DNA of 64,000 nt. Origin: Candidatus Entotheonellaceae bacterium. GTDB lineage: Bacteria; Tectomicrobia; Entotheonellia; Entotheonellales; Entotheonellaceae. This document shows positions 50,364 to 54,911 of the stretch, in pieces. A program made the position numbers and the translations under genes. The notes beneath the pieces are model-generated. The model ran no database searches, was not told where the DNA came from, and saw only the letters and a program-made list of their open reading frames with translations. The DNA lies in assembly GCA_965238075.1 (NCBI GenBank), contig OZ250173.1:2560001-2624000 (forward strand). Direction: 5' to 3'. Position 1 is the stretch's first letter; each line of letters starts with the position of its first letter.

Positions 50364-50654
50364 TTGCGCTGGACGTGGGACGACGCCAAGAACCGCGTCA
50401 ATAAACGGAAGCATCGCCTCAGCTTCGAGACGGCGCAATTCGTATTCGATGACCCGCTGTCGGCGCACCGCCCGGATCTGGGTTCGGACGAAGAACGATG
50501 GCACACCATCGGTATGATCAGCGGCGTGGTCGTGATCGTGGCGCATACATGGCCCGAACCGCAACCTGGAAGCCATGTCGAAGTGGGTCGTATCATCAGT
50601 GCTCGGAAAGCCACGACGCATGAAAGGAGAGCCTATGAAGAAGGGAGTTACTAA
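50364..50654 (+). CDS. brnT: BrnT toxin
   Basis: WDDAKNRVNKRKHRLSFE.A..VF.DP, EERW, RIISARKAT.HER. Confidence 0.9.
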   Translation: MRWTWDDAKNRVNKRKHRLSFETAQFVFDDPLSAHRPDLGSDEERWHTIGMISGVVVIVAHTWPEPQPGSHVEVGRIISARKATTHERRAYEEGSY

Positions 50655-50925
50655 AAAACTCACTCAGGAACAAAAGGCGGAGGTCCGGACGCTTGCGAAC
50701 CTTCCCGACGAGGCGATCGATACCAGCGACGTGCCTGAGATTCTGGATTGGTCCGGTGCTAGGCGCGGTCTCCTGTACCGGCCGGTCAAGCAACAGATCA
50801 CCCTGCGGCTGGATGCCGACGTGGTGTCATGGTTCAAAGCAAACGTTCCGAACGGCCGGGGCTACCAGACCGAGATCAACCGCGTGCTTCGCGAGCATGC
50901 TCGACGAGCTTTGAGTCAGGCGTAG
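50635..50925 (+). CDS. brnA: BrnA antitoxin
   Basis: IDTSDVPE, KQQITLRLDADVV.WFK, GYQTEINRVLR. Confidence 0.9.
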   Translation: MKKGVTKKLTQEQKAEVRTLANLPDEAIDTSDVPEILDWSGARRGLLYRPVKQQITLRLDADVVSWFKANVPNGRGYQTEINRVLREHARRALSQA

Positions 50926-51066: not shown

Positions 51067-52989
51067 ATGGATGTTTTGACAGGATTAGCCCAGATACGGG
51101 CGGGAATGGATCAGTACGTTGTCGGCCATGACGATGTGAAAGAAGGCATTCTACTTGGTGTCATTGCGCGCGAGCATATCTATCTCGAAGGCCCGCCAGG
51201 GACGGCGAAAACGATGCTGGCCGAGGTGACCTCGGACGCTGCGGAGTTGAAGTTCTTCTTCTATCAGTTGCACCGCGACACCCGTCTGGCGGAATTGGTC
51301 GGCGATACGGTGATTTTCCGTGAGAAGGACGAGTCGGGCGGCGAGGTGATCCGGCAGGTGAACCGCAAGGGCGGCATTCTGACCTCGGAAATCTGCGTGC
51401 TCGACGATATCTCCCGTGCGCCCGGTGAGGCCCTGAACGTCCTGCTTCGCGTGCTCAATGAGCGCAAGTTCGGCGACGACCGCATTCCCCTGCTGACCGC
51501 CATCGCCACCGGGAATCCCACCAAGGAAGACTATTACAACGAGCCCCTGGATCCGGCCAACCTGGACCGCTTCACCATCCAGATGCGCACCCTCGGTCTG
51601 CTGCAGCGCAACATGTGGCAGGCGGCCGCGGCGGTCATTGACCGCTATGCCGACGGCCATCTGAGTCCCGAAGCCTCGCCGCGCGTCACGCGGGCGGTGC
51701 TGGACGGCGCCACCGAACTGCTCCCCAAGGTGGATCTGACGGCGGCGGTGAAGGAACTGTTGCTGGAATTCCTCAACGTGCTGCTGAACGACTACGGCTG
51801 CAATGACAGCAACTCGCTGCTGACGGACCGCACCTTCCTCGTCAAGGCGGTGAAAATCCTCAAGGCCAAGGCCGTGCTCGAGGGCCGCGACCACTGCGTG
51901 CCCGAAGACTTGCACGTCCTCAAATACCTCACGGCGTTCCGCATTCCCGAGGAACTGCACAACCGCCTCGATGAGATCATCGACCAGCTGCTGCGAAAAA
52001 AAAAAGTTGAGCCAGAAGACGACGACACCGTCGAGCAACTGAGCGAGGCGCAGTCCGAGGAGCGTTCGGACGGGCAGCCGCGCACCGATTACACCGCTCA
52101 GGAAGCGAACGTCGATCACCGCAAGCAGGAACTCGAGCTCGGCGACATGGTGCAGCAGTCCCTCAGCCCGAACGCCGACGATGACGGTGAGAAAGCCGAG
52201 CTGAACCTCGATAACGAGTCGATCGACAACATCGAGGTGCTGCTCAAGGTCCTGAAGGGCCGCATCGAAAAGAACCTCGCCGAAAAGGTGCCGCACCGCG
52301 GCGGCCAGCCGCGCAAGTGGCGCCGCATGACGTCGTTCGACGACCTCCTCGACACCGATCCCGTCGAAAGCACCATCTGGTACGAGAATGTCACTCCCCA
52401 ACTGCCCCGCATGCTGTTGCGCGAGCGCCACGACCGCGGCGGCGAGCTCGCCATCCTGCGTGACATCAGTTCGTCCATGGCCGGCATCTACTCCAAGTGG
52501 GCGTCGTCCGTCATCCTGCGCCTGGTGGAGATGGTCCGCAAAAAGCGCATGCGGGTGGGCTATATCGAGTTCAATCACCTGTCCACCAAGTACCAGGTGG
52601 ACGGCAAGTTCTTCATGCGCGACTACGAAAAGATGACGCGCCGCGCCCTGCACCTGCACTGTTCCGGCTGCACCAACTACCAGAATTCCCTGGAGGACGC
52701 GCTGCACGAATTCAAGCGTCTGGGACGCGGCAACCAGCACATCCTCTTCCTGACCGACGGCGTGCCCACCCAGGGCGACTGGGAAGTGAAAGCCGAGCGC
52801 GCCCTGGCGCAGGAGTTGAACGTTTCCATTCACACCATTTTCATCGGCAAGAACAAGTGCCCGCGCATCCTGGAAATCCTCTCCGAGGAGACCAACGGCG
52901 CGCAGTTTCAGGCCTCGACGGATCGCTACGGCGTCATTCGTATTGAAGAGCGCCATTCGCAGCAGGCCCCTGAACTGGTTGCGCACTAA
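51067..52989 (+). CDS. MoxR/RavA-type AAA+ ATPase fused to a VWA domain via an acidic linker
   Basis: GPPGTAKT, VLDDISRA, ANLDRF; MIDAS DISSS..T..TDG. Confidence 0.88.
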   Translation: MDVLTGLAQIRAGMDQYVVGHDDVKEGILLGVIAREHIYLEGPPGTAKTMLAEVTSDAAELKFFFYQLHRDTRLAELVGDTVIFREKDESGGEVIRQVNRKGGILTSEICVLDDISRAPGEALNVLLRVLNERKFGDDRIPLLTAIATGNPTKEDYYNEPLDPANLDRFTIQMRTLGLLQRNMWQAAAAVIDRYADGHLSPEASPRVTRAVLDGATELLPKVDLTAAVKELLLEFLNVLLNDYGCNDSNSLLTDRTFLVKAVKILKAKAVLEGRDHCVPEDLHVLKYLTAFRIPEELHNRLDEIIDQLLRKKKVEPEDDDTVEQLSEAQSEERSDGQPRTDYTAQEANVDHRKQELELGDMVQQSLSPNADDDGEKAELNLDNESIDNIEVLLKVLKGRIEKNLAEKVPHRGGQPRKWRRMTSFDDLLDTDPVESTIWYENVTPQLPRMLLRERHDRGGELAILRDISSSMAGIYSKWASSVILRLVEMVRKKRMRVGYIEFNHLSTKYQVDGKFFMRDYEKMTRRALHLHCSGCTNYQNSLEDALHEFKRLGRGNQHILFLTDGVPTQGDWEVKAERALAQELNVSIHTIFIGKNKCPRILEILSEETNGAQFQASTDRYGVIRIEERHSQQAPELVAH

Positions 52990-53076: not shown

Positions 53077-53976
53077 ATGCTGTTGGAGGGCAAGGTCGCC
53101 GTGGTCACGGGCGGTGGCAACGGCATCGGGCGTGAGATCAGCAAGCTGATGGGCGCCGAGGGCGCCAAGGTGGTCGTGAACGACCTGGGGACGGCTGTTG
53201 ACGGGGCAGGCGAATCGAGTTCCGCGGCCGATCAGACCGTGCAGATGATCAAGGACGCCGGCGGCGAGGCGACGCCGAATTACGAGAGTGTGGCGACCCC
53301 GGAGGGCGGCGAGAGCATCATCCAGACTGCGGTGGATACGTACGGCAAGCTGGATATTCTGGTGCACGTGGCCGGCATTTTGCGCGACCGCATGATTTTC
53401 AACATGAGCGTCGAGGAATGGGACGCGGTGATCAACGTGCACCTGCGCGGCGCCTATTGCGTCAATAAGCCGGCCTGCGTCCTGATGCGGCAGCAGAAGA
53501 GCGGCTGCATCATCAACTTCTCGTCGATTTCCGGTGCCGGCAACTCCGGGCAGGCCAACTACGCGGCGGCCAAGGCGGGCATTCTCGGCTTGACGCGCAC
53601 CATTGCGCGCGACATGGCGAAATACGGCGTGCGCGCCAATGCCATCTGGCCGGGTGCGGACACCCGCATGACCGCCACCGTGCCTGAATCGGCACGCCAG
53701 ATTCGCTCCGAGCGCGGCCTGGGCGAGATGCGCATGTCGGCCATTCGCCGACCCGAAAGCGTCGCCTCGGTGGTGGCCTTCCTGGCTTCGGACATGGCCG
53801 AGAACATTACCGGCTGGACGGTCGGCATCATCGGCGACCGCCTGTCGCTGATCGACGACCCGGTGCCCGTGAAGACGGTATTTTGCGAGGGCGGCTGGAC
53901 GCTGGACCAGGTTGCCGAATGGTGGCCGGAGACCTTCGGGACCGACTTGCGCCACCTGGATCAGCCGCAGCAGTAA
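53077..53976 (+). CDS. SDR oxidoreductase (copy 1)
   Basis: TGGGNGIG, VNDLG, YAAAK. Confidence 0.93.
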   Translation: MLLEGKVAVVTGGGNGIGREISKLMGAEGAKVVVNDLGTAVDGAGESSSAADQTVQMIKDAGGEATPNYESVATPEGGESIIQTAVDTYGKLDILVHVAGILRDRMIFNMSVEEWDAVINVHLRGAYCVNKPACVLMRQQKSGCIINFSSISGAGNSGQANYAAAKAGILGLTRTIARDMAKYGVRANAIWPGADTRMTATVPESARQIRSERGLGEMRMSAIRRPESVASVVAFLASDMAENITGWTVGIIGDRLSLIDDPVPVKTVFCEGGWTLDQVAEWWPETFGTDLRHLDQPQQ

Positions 53977-54008
53977 TCGGCAACAACCCATTCCTGAGGG
54001 AAAACGAC

Positions 54009-54911
54009 ATGCGATTGGAAGGTAAGGTCGCCGTGGTCACGGGCGGTGGCAACGGCATTGGGCGTGAGATCAGCAAGCTGATGGGCGCCGAGGGCGCCAA
54101 GGTGGTTGTGAACGACCTGGGGACGGCGGTTGACGGGGCAGGCGAATCGAGTTCCGCGGCCGATCAGACGGTGCAGATGATCAAGGATGCCGGGGGCGAA
54201 GCGACGCCGAACTACGAGAGCGTGGCGACCCCGGAGGGCGGCCAGAGCATCATTCAGACCGCGGTGGATACGTACGGCAAGCTGGATATTCTGGTGCACG
54301 TGGCCGGCATTCTGCGCGACCGCATGATTTTCAACATGTCCATCGAAGAATGGGATGCCGTCATCAACGTGCACCTGCGCGGCGCCTACTGCGTCAATAA
54401 GCCGGCCTGCGTCCTGATGCGTCAGCAAAAAAGCGGTTGCATCATCAACTTCTCGTCGATTTCCGGCGCCGGCAACTCCGGGCAGGCCAACTACGCGGCG
54501 GCCAAGGCCGGGATTCTCGGCCTGACGCGCACCGTCGCGCGTGACATGGCGAAATACGGCGTGCGCGCCAACGCCATCTGGCCGGGTGCCGACACCCGCA
54601 TGACGGCCACGGTTCCCGAGGCGGCGCGCCAGATTCGCGCCGAACGCGGTATCGGACAGGTCATCGCGGCCACCGCCGAGCGCCGGCCGGAGAACGTCGC
54701 CGCGGTGGTGGCTTACTTGGCCAGCGATGCGGCGGCAGACATTACGGGCTGGACGGTTGGCATTTCGGGTGACCGGCTATCCCTGATCGAAGACCCGCGT
54801 CCGGTGAAAACGGTCTTCTGCCCCGGCGGCTGGACGCTCGACAAGGTCGTTGAGTTGTGGCCCGGCTCTTTCGGGCTCGACCTGCGCCACCTGCAACGCG
54901 CCGGTCAATAA
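54009..54911 (+). CDS. SDR oxidoreductase (copy 2)
   Basis: Near-identical to copy 1 over the first ~210 aa; start ATG 54009. Confidence 0.93.
   Translation: MRLEGKVAVVTGGGNGIGREISKLMGAEGAKVVVNDLGTAVDGAGESSSAADQTVQMIKDAGGEATPNYESVATPEGGQSIIQTAVDTYGKLDILVHVAGILRDRMIFNMSIEEWDAVINVHLRGAYCVNKPACVLMRQQKSGCIINFSSISGAGNSGQANYAAAKAGILGLTRTVARDMAKYGVRANAIWPGADTRMTATVPEAARQIRAERGIGQVIAATAERRPENVAAVVAYLASDAAADITGWTVGISGDRLSLIEDPRPVKTVFCPGGWTLDKVVELWPGSFGLDLRHLQRAGQ

Follow-up and report, generated by a model that had tools for sequence, protein, structure and literature searches.

Does one reading frame make one protein here, or two? The question is raised by a gene in a 64,000-nucleotide stretch of Candidatus Entotheonellaceae bacterium DNA (GenBank assembly GCA_965238075.1, contig OZ250173.1, positions 2,560,001 to 2,624,000 of the forward strand), which was analysed whole and is called the window below. 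The gene encodes an AAA+ ATPase module of the MoxR type, an acidic linker and a von Willebrand factor A (VWA) domain, and it carries a run of ten adenines (A10) where the module meets the linker. Here 'long form' and 'short form' refer to the AAA-linker-VWA product and the AAA-only product, respectively. From the comparisons described below, we consider it probable that the A10 run is a programmed recoding site, working mainly by transcriptional slippage, through which the one gene supplies both AAA-only and AAA-VWA subunits.

The run is read as CGA AAA AAA AAA GTT GAG in frame with the ATG at 51067, and a single open reading frame (ORF) gives a long form of 640 amino acids (aa), whose start Met is shared by the homologues. 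With one more A, or with a -1 shift, the reading becomes AAA AAA AAA AGT TGA and the product ends at 314 aa. With one A fewer, another TGA ends the product at 324 aa. The median distance to a -1-frame stop across the gene is 31 codons. An initial annotation of this DNA had described the run as atypical for a gene preferring AAG, had read a 314-aa product in the -1 frame beside the 640-aa product of frame 0, and had placed the site at the boundary of the ATPase lid and the acidic linker; all of this was confirmed.

The gene uses 24 AAG and 10 AAA codons for Lys, with three of the AAA codons lying within the run, and the CGA that donates the first A is the only one among its 49 Arg codons. Genome-wide, AAA accounts for 31% of Lys codons (AAG 69%) and CGA for 7.6% of Arg codons. 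The window contains A8 or longer only in this run (three overlapping matches, all inside it, with 0.74 expected). In the whole genome (3,352,321 bases, 62% GC), it is the sole run of at least nine A or T, as the next longest are A8 (ten times) and T8 (eleven times).

Its position in the protein was located with an AlphaFold model that is moderate in quality (mean predicted local distance difference test score, pLDDT, 65; predicted template modelling score 0.44) and was used for the domain boundary only. The last ATPase helix of the model spans residues 301-314 and includes the three Lys at 311-313, residues 315-378 have pLDDT below 50 and mostly lack secondary structure, and strands alternate with helices at 460-628. 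Because the modelled last helix stops at 314 and disorder begins at 315, the run lies at the exact end of the folded ATPase module; the lid match in Pfam ends at residue 288.

Is the run kept among relatives? A scan of species-representative genomes yielded 13 homologous loci of 57-98% identity, from Candidatus Entotheonella and other Tectimicrobiota, one Nitrospinota metagenome-assembled genome (MAG) and one Dadabacteria MAG. A further 35 family loci (L015-L049) came from a metagenome scan that used the family alignment. Seven of the 48 loci that end short of the junction were dropped from the counts (L029, L030, L041, L042, L044, L046, L048), three are of a two-gene type (L036, L037, L039), and the remaining 38 are single-gene loci. 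Outside the analysis are L050-L094 (45 loci of other MoxR ATPases, with 25-39% identity in the AAA part only) and L014 (23%).

All 38 single-gene loci carry A9-A12 at the junction (A9 in 3, A10 in 26, A11 in 6, A12 in 3). These run-bearing loci span Tectimicrobiota, Nitrospinota, Dadabacteria and unnamed metagenome lineages, with best-segment protein identity of 36-98%; the most distant clade is about 49-60% identical in the AAA part and 47-49% over the whole protein. The runs sit in 29 different flanking contexts and start at codon position 1, 2 or 3 depending on the clade, and AAG never occurs within them, as every Lys codon of the run is AAA in 39 of 39 genes including the window gene. The variety of contexts, the varying codon phase and the absence of AAG together indicate a constraint on the A nucleotides rather than on a Lys-Lys-Lys peptide. 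The initial annotation had proposed looking in homologues for a conserved poly-A with fused and split frames, and both frame types were found around the run. None of the 38 single-gene loci has AAG in the run or is without it, and the three run-less loci are of the two-gene type.

The 39 genes fall into three frame states. The VWA part is in frame in 22, requires one additional A in 15 (VWA in the -1 frame) and requires one A fewer in 2 (VWA in the +1 frame). In every gene, a tail of 285-400 codons becomes readable after one insertion or deletion in the run, and both remaining frames stop 3-19 codons from the run start. One sub-clade has the same downstream sequence behind A10 (-1), A11 (in frame) and A12 (+1). 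These states occur in close relatives, and to serve all three a process must be able to gain bases as well as lose them.

The 17 genes out of frame are called split below. Their states recur across independent assemblies (L010 and L012; L013, L038, L040 and L049; L031, L033, L043 and L045). For four of 11 pairs, in which dS is 0.5-1.0, the ratio of nonsynonymous to synonymous substitution rates (dN/dS) of the out-of-frame VWA part is 0.014, 0.022, 0.018 and 0.051; in the other seven pairs dS is saturated, with dN of 0.04-0.30. By these comparisons, purifying selection on the out-of-frame VWA part is strong and the split genes are not decaying. Since the genomic frame is split in 17 of 39, gene-calling programs would annotate such a locus as two genes or as a pseudogene and overlook the full-length product. 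Database entries include AAA-only proteins of about 320 aa and VWA-only proteins of 340-400 aa alongside those of 640 aa. Incidentally, one related genome (G006) has two split-form copies about 2.4 kb apart (contig C1, 6690-8578 and 10940-12834).

If there were no recoding, a Lys-Lys-Lys patch ending the lid helix would be what is conserved, the A-run would be its by-product, and the split loci would be two genes or decay products. Among the 120 closest database proteins, most indeed keep the three Lys, a separate VWA partner is the norm for MoxR ATPases according to parts of a survey (PMC7159879), and some split loci offer a start codon directly after the run, as weighed below. On the other hand, the Lys codons of the run are AAA without exception despite the genome's preference for AAG, the run is lengthened by A's of adjacent codons, which specify differing residues, and the codon phase of the run depends on the clade. 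In 10 of the 17 split loci, the VWA frame is already open at the run, yet its first ATG, GTG or TTG comes only 38-109 codons later, and genuine two-gene loci have no run at all. We regard this explanation as quite improbable.

A different possibility is that the run is a contingency locus at the DNA level, where slipped-strand mispairing during replication would produce phase variation between fused and truncated states. The run length does vary between related lineages, from A9 to A12 overall and over A10, A11 and A12 within one sub-clade, and poly-A tracts are slippery for DNA polymerase as well (stated in part of PMC3711429). Within the window's phylum, the gene is present in 12 of 17 species genomes, including all six high-quality ones. 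All six genomes of the window's genus, the window's own included (96-100% identity), have the gene intact with A10, as do in-frame relatives at 80-84% identity, and variation in length is seen only between more distant lineages. The split states are identical in independent assemblies, and from a public DNA-like read set, X1, came one A10 contig only, at depth 108, although minor variants do not show in contigs and X1 may itself be the source sample. A cytoplasmic ATPase is encoded and not a surface antigen, and phase variation leaves unexplained why both wrong frames are always closed and why the VWA frame is under selection in genomes where it would be 'off'. It is thus very improbable in our estimate.

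The frame differences and run lengths could also be homopolymer errors of sequencing or assembly. Long-read data are error-prone at homopolymers, and the three A12 contigs and one in-frame A11 could include such errors. The same state is nevertheless seen across independent assemblies and technologies, the X1 contig agrees with A10 (with the reservation about its source given above), and the run is present in all 38 loci irrespective of its exact length. Errors of this kind as the general explanation have hardly any probability.

Which machinery would slip, RNA polymerase or the ribosome? Transcriptional slippage occurs at runs of at least nine A or T, and the RNA:DNA hybrid is 9-10 bp long, as stated in parts of PMC5009743 and PMC1088944. 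The runs here are never shorter than nine, which fits the hybrid length and the slippage threshold and favours transcriptional slippage over a purely ribosomal shift. Two further results favour it, namely the states requiring gain and loss of an A in close relatives, and the absence of a conserved downstream structure or Shine-Dalgarno-like element. No conserved downstream RNA structure was found, as the z-score of folding against shuffles is -2.35 for the 100 nucleotides downstream in the window and ranges from -2.18 to +1.33 in the 13 loci, where the linker does not align; only three of the window and the 13 loci are at or below -1.9, and 10 of the 13 are above -1. The upstream 90 nucleotides have a z-score of -0.8. 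No Shine-Dalgarno-like motif was seen in the 15 nucleotides upstream when the printed contexts were inspected by eye without scoring.

In a purely translational alternative, the mRNA would be uniformly A10, and ribosomes would shift by -1 on A_AAA_AAA or slide, as in Escherichia coli dnaX. The in-phase heptamer is present at the run (cgA AAA AAA, frame 0), and exactly a -1 shift is required in 15 of the 17 split loci. The chelatase cases are described as ribosomal frameshifting at A_AAA_AAR in parts of PMC5009743 and PMC9227772, ribosome sliding on poly-A is reported in part of PMC4363877, and the window's downstream sequence folds somewhat better than shuffles. With ribosomal frameshifting, however, seven A's would suffice and runs below nine would be allowed, the two A12 loci requiring a +1 shift and the relatives with A10, A11 and A12 would need differing ribosomal events, the downstream structure is not conserved over 13 loci, and one RNA-derived contig has an extra A. 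We therefore favour transcriptional over ribosomal slippage and consider the purely translational alternative unlikely.

Slippage by RNA polymerase would proceed as follows. On the T10 template, an all-A:T hybrid could realign, so that the mRNA pool would contain A10 together with A11, A12 and A9. Messages with A10 would yield the 640-aa AAA-linker-VWA protein. Messages that have gained one or two A's or lost one would reach a stop 1-12 codons past the run and yield a complete AAA+ module of 313-325 aa; if counting begins with the codon containing the first A, the short tails are 4-16 codons. Ribosomal -1 slippage on A_AAA_AAA may contribute. In E. coli reporters, chelatase poly-A runs of 7, 9 and 11 gave 10, 40 and 63% shifted product (from part of PMC3711429), and by these yields A10 could give comparable amounts of both forms. 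Short and long forms would co-assemble in rings with fewer VWA arms than ATPase subunits, by analogy with the RavA hexamer, BchI/BchD and DnaX tau/gamma. In some lineages the genomic frame would encode the short form and slippage would supply the long form, and in others gene duplication would have replaced the run by two genes. The mRNA heterogeneity, the two proteins, their co-assembly and a role in ring-to-adaptor stoichiometry are what we infer for the window gene.

Several observations weigh against recoding by transcriptional slippage or limit its reach. The public-read evidence consists of assembled contigs, which drop minor variants, and the RNA samples have no matched DNA. Metatranscriptome contig X15 has A11 (1022 nucleotides, depth 12.5, 99.3% identity to the window with five other differences over 708 nucleotides), a hint in favour of slippage, but it may reflect a strain with genomic A11 or stutter during reverse transcription or PCR. 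A second RNA run, X17, gave an A10 contig, and contigs of a third, X16, break at the run, for which a strain mixture is an alternative cause; the X16 break and the coverage figures were not used as evidence. The two mechanisms are inseparable by sequence alone, and a ribosomal share on A_AAA_AAA is possible. GTG directly follows the run in four split loci (L010, L011, L012, L028), and three further split loci have a start at codon +11 or +12; in those seven, separate initiation of a VWA-only protein is possible. Many of the loci are kin and not independent counts. Run-clade member P0074 appears to have lost the run, as seen in its protein sequence only. Finally, the more distant fused members of the family mostly lack a Lys run at the junction, which means that the short form is not universally required and that the device is confined to one clade and not common to all MoxR-VWA fusions.

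How is the ATPase subunit supplied where the run is missing? The three two-gene loci have no A or T run of at least eight. In each, a long AAA-linker-VWA gene is directly followed by an AAA-only gene of 317-322 aa, and the stop and start of the two overlap or abut in L037 and L039. The short gene has 56-57% identity to the ATPase part of the window gene and terminates at the position of the run, and the long gene of L037 is 621 aa and 36% identical to the query.

These genes were placed on a tree of the ATPase module (95 rows, quick LG+G4 search, with support given only as the Shimodaira-Hasegawa-like approximate likelihood ratio test, SH-aLRT). Labels of the database proteins on the tree were guessed from a peptide motif, so that at least P0097, P0116 (QKKN) and P0105 (EKKT) are wrongly tagged as run-less. 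All run-bearing rows fall in one group of 30 (SH-aLRT 95), together with the L036 short gene and P0074, and the short genes of L037 and L039 adjoin this group. The L037 long gene belongs to a group far from this one, made up of 24 proteins of about 600 aa that lack the run (SH-aLRT 100). The arrangement resembles chlI/chlD in that, without a slippery site, the short and long subunits are separate genes and the long one has the more diverged ATPase part.

The window's own genome has an AAA-VWA paralogue just outside the window, directly downstream of pgi. It is 633 aa, fused, 48% identical to the window gene and without an A-run. The paralogue is closer to the L036 long gene (54% identity) than the window gene is (47%). 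This run-less paralogue might also draw on the short product of the window gene.

To which family does the encoded protein belong? By sequence and by fold, it is a MoxR-type AAA+ protein with a VWA domain. Pfam matches above the cut-off in the AAA+ part are PF20030 bpMoxR (8e-21, 74 bits), PF07728 (65 bits) and PF07726 (42 bits), followed by the AAA lid PF17868 at residues 233-288 and by VWA models PF00092 and PF13768 over residues 450-615. The sole NCBIfam match is RavA, far under its cut-off. A sequence search of solved structures found MoxR-like 2r44 (5e-15) and RavA (1e-9), aligned over residues 15-288, with BchI absent from these PDB matches at E up to 0.01. Foldseek also ranked 2r44 and RavA at the top, and BchI of Mg-chelatase came at rank 47 by fold.

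In an alignment of 15 family members, Walker A, the Walker B LDD and the five residues of the metal ion-dependent adhesion site (MIDAS; DxSxS...T...D) are all invariant. Walker B has LDD in the window gene where 2r44 has ADE and RavA has LDE, and departs from the canonical hhhhDE. The initial annotation had called this DD atypical, which proved to be a family-wide trait (D113 and D114 invariant in 15 of 15). The DD, with the catalytic Glu replaced, was present in all family members examined, including both genes of the two-gene loci.

A chelatase identity was considered and rejected. PF01078 reached 17.1 bits where 20.3 are required, and none of its matching stretches passed individually; no NCBIfam ChlD/BchD or CobT model matched. 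CobN/ChlH (PF02514) has no match in the window's own genome, which is 93% complete, and matches in 5 of 14 control genomes. Because the genome lacks CobN/ChlH, the gene is not a chelatase D subunit.

How does the gene compare with known systems? The closest likeness is with Thermus thermophilus dnaX (tau/gamma), also an AAA+ gene with at least nine A's at the end of the ATPase module and near stops in both non-zero frames. Its A9 run leaves the long form in frame, and each of the other two frames meets a stop (as given in parts of PMC1088944 and PMC5009743), and the shorter form is without the C-terminal interaction domain. Relatives of dnaX exist in which the long form needs the shift, as in the split loci here (parts of PMC1088944, PMC5009743 and PMC3711429). 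Unlike dnaX, MoxR is not in the clamp-loader clade, and the dropped domain here is a VWA/MIDAS adaptor. Whereas mRNA heterogeneity and both proteins have been demonstrated for dnaX, the window gene is known from sequences.

The second likeness is with frameshifted chlD (fs-chlD) of Mg and Co chelatases (Antonov et al. 2013; Kuznetsov et al. 2022), which likewise encodes AAA+, acidic linker and VWA with an A-rich site at the AAA/VWA junction. Parts of PMC3711429 and PMC9227772 document such genes with poly-A runs of 7, 9 and 11 and describe one gene giving a small I-like and a medium D-like subunit, with fused, split and chlI plus chlD encodings according to lineage. The analogy that the initial annotation had drawn is thereby documented, while the window gene itself is no chelatase subunit. 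Its further proposal of chlD-like recoding here has gained comparative evidence from the conserved runs, the frame states, the selection and the two-gene loci; the choice between polymerase and ribosome and the stoichiometric role stay conjectural. Unlike fs-chlD, the window family is of the MoxR type and not a chelatase family, and the genome is without CobN/ChlH. In frame are 22 of 39 genes here, in contrast to the 2013 chelatase cluster, which was found as split genes with fused relatives noted (part of PMC3711429).

The third likeness is with RavA-ViaA, CoxD-CoxE and bpMoxR ternary systems, in which a MoxR-clade AAA+ protein works with a MIDAS-bearing VWA protein (part of PMC7159879). The window gene differs from these pairs in having ATPase and VWA in one reading frame at a slippery run, in its Walker B DD, and in that no third component was found. 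The main text of the MoxR-VWA survey (PMC7159879) contains neither 'frameshift' nor 'slippage'. In the literature library searched, no paper linked transcriptional slippage with MoxR, although supplementary lists of frameshift clusters might include a MoxR-type cluster, and a search on transcriptional slippage with von Willebrand and AAA found nothing related. The family may thus operate like dnaX and fs-chlD while belonging to neither, and it may have been listed before. The proposed recoding is of a known kind.

Table 1 Features of the window gene and coordinates of related genes (window positions unless a locus or contig is named)
Feature	Position	Strand	Basis or remark
Whole gene, MoxR-type AAA+ / acidic linker / VWA, 640 aa	51067..52989 (stop included)	+	ORF, Pfam, 96-98% identical full-length homologues of the same genus
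AAA+ module, aa 1-310, common to both predicted products	51067..51995	+	Alignment and Foldseek to 2r44 and RavA; model
Walker A GPPGTAKT	51190..51213	+	G42-T49 invariant in 15/15 sequences
Walker B ICVLDD, DD for usual DE	51391..51408	+	Alignment with 2r44 and RavA; D113, D114 invariant
A10 run, Arg-Lys-Lys-Lys, proposed recoding site	51996..52005	+	A9-A12 there in 38/38 single-gene loci
TGA, -1 frame, ends predicted 314-aa AAA-only product (...KKKS)	52008..52010	+	Stop at gene nucleotide 942
TGA, +1 frame, ends predicted 324-aa AAA-only product	52040..52042	+	Stop at gene nucleotide 974
Acidic linker, aa 315-378, predicted disordered, long product only	52009..52200	+	pLDDT 27-37; poorly conserved
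VWA domain, aa ~456-628, long product only; MIDAS D466, S468, S470, T536, D564	52432..52950	+	Pfam, alignment, model
Two-gene loci	L036 1311-2279; L037 167-2032 and 2029-2991; L039 1559-2512		
Paralogue	G000:C1:2626118-2628019 (L095:4118-6019)		~2 kb past the window's end, 13 kb from the gene

Does the neighbourhood offer a partner? An all-against-all comparison of flanking ORFs from 49 loci and the window found no conserved third partner across clades, and no substrate came to light either. The shared neighbours are clade-specific housekeeping genes only: 17 loci of the Entotheonella-like clade have a short-chain dehydrogenase gene downstream, and 13-15 loci have YceG and a glutamate-5-kinase-like gene on the opposite strand. 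In the window, two overlapping ORFs directly upstream (50364-50925) encode a toxin resembling the ribonuclease BrnT (PF04365, 1e-22) and an antitoxin resembling BrnA (PF14384, 4e-15). Downstream are two tandem, near-identical short-chain dehydrogenase genes (53077-53976 and about 54006-54911), of which the first approximately 200 residues are almost the same. Elsewhere in the genome, G/C homopolymers amount to one G11, three G9, one C10 and four C9.

To our knowledge, recoding sites conserved across phyla are rare, and few are in cellular genes beyond mobile elements, dnaX, prfB and chlD. If the proposed recoding is true, a MoxR-type chaperone family joins these cases, and slippage at a domain boundary that drops the C-terminal adaptor of an AAA+ protein arose or persisted in a third AAA+ lineage. 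More tentatively, in this MoxR-type AAA+-VWA clade of several phyla, polymerase stuttering on A9-A12 may set the ratio of bare to adaptor-bearing subunits, with four interchangeable encodings (in frame, -1, +1 and two genes); we see this wider proposal as plausible, though not as the likelier outcome. In their run lengths and frame states, the loci offer a ready-made series for studying how the efficiency of slippage translates into complex stoichiometry. If true, the small-plus-medium design of chelatase I and D subunits would be a general property of MoxR-VWA systems and not a peculiarity of chelatases.

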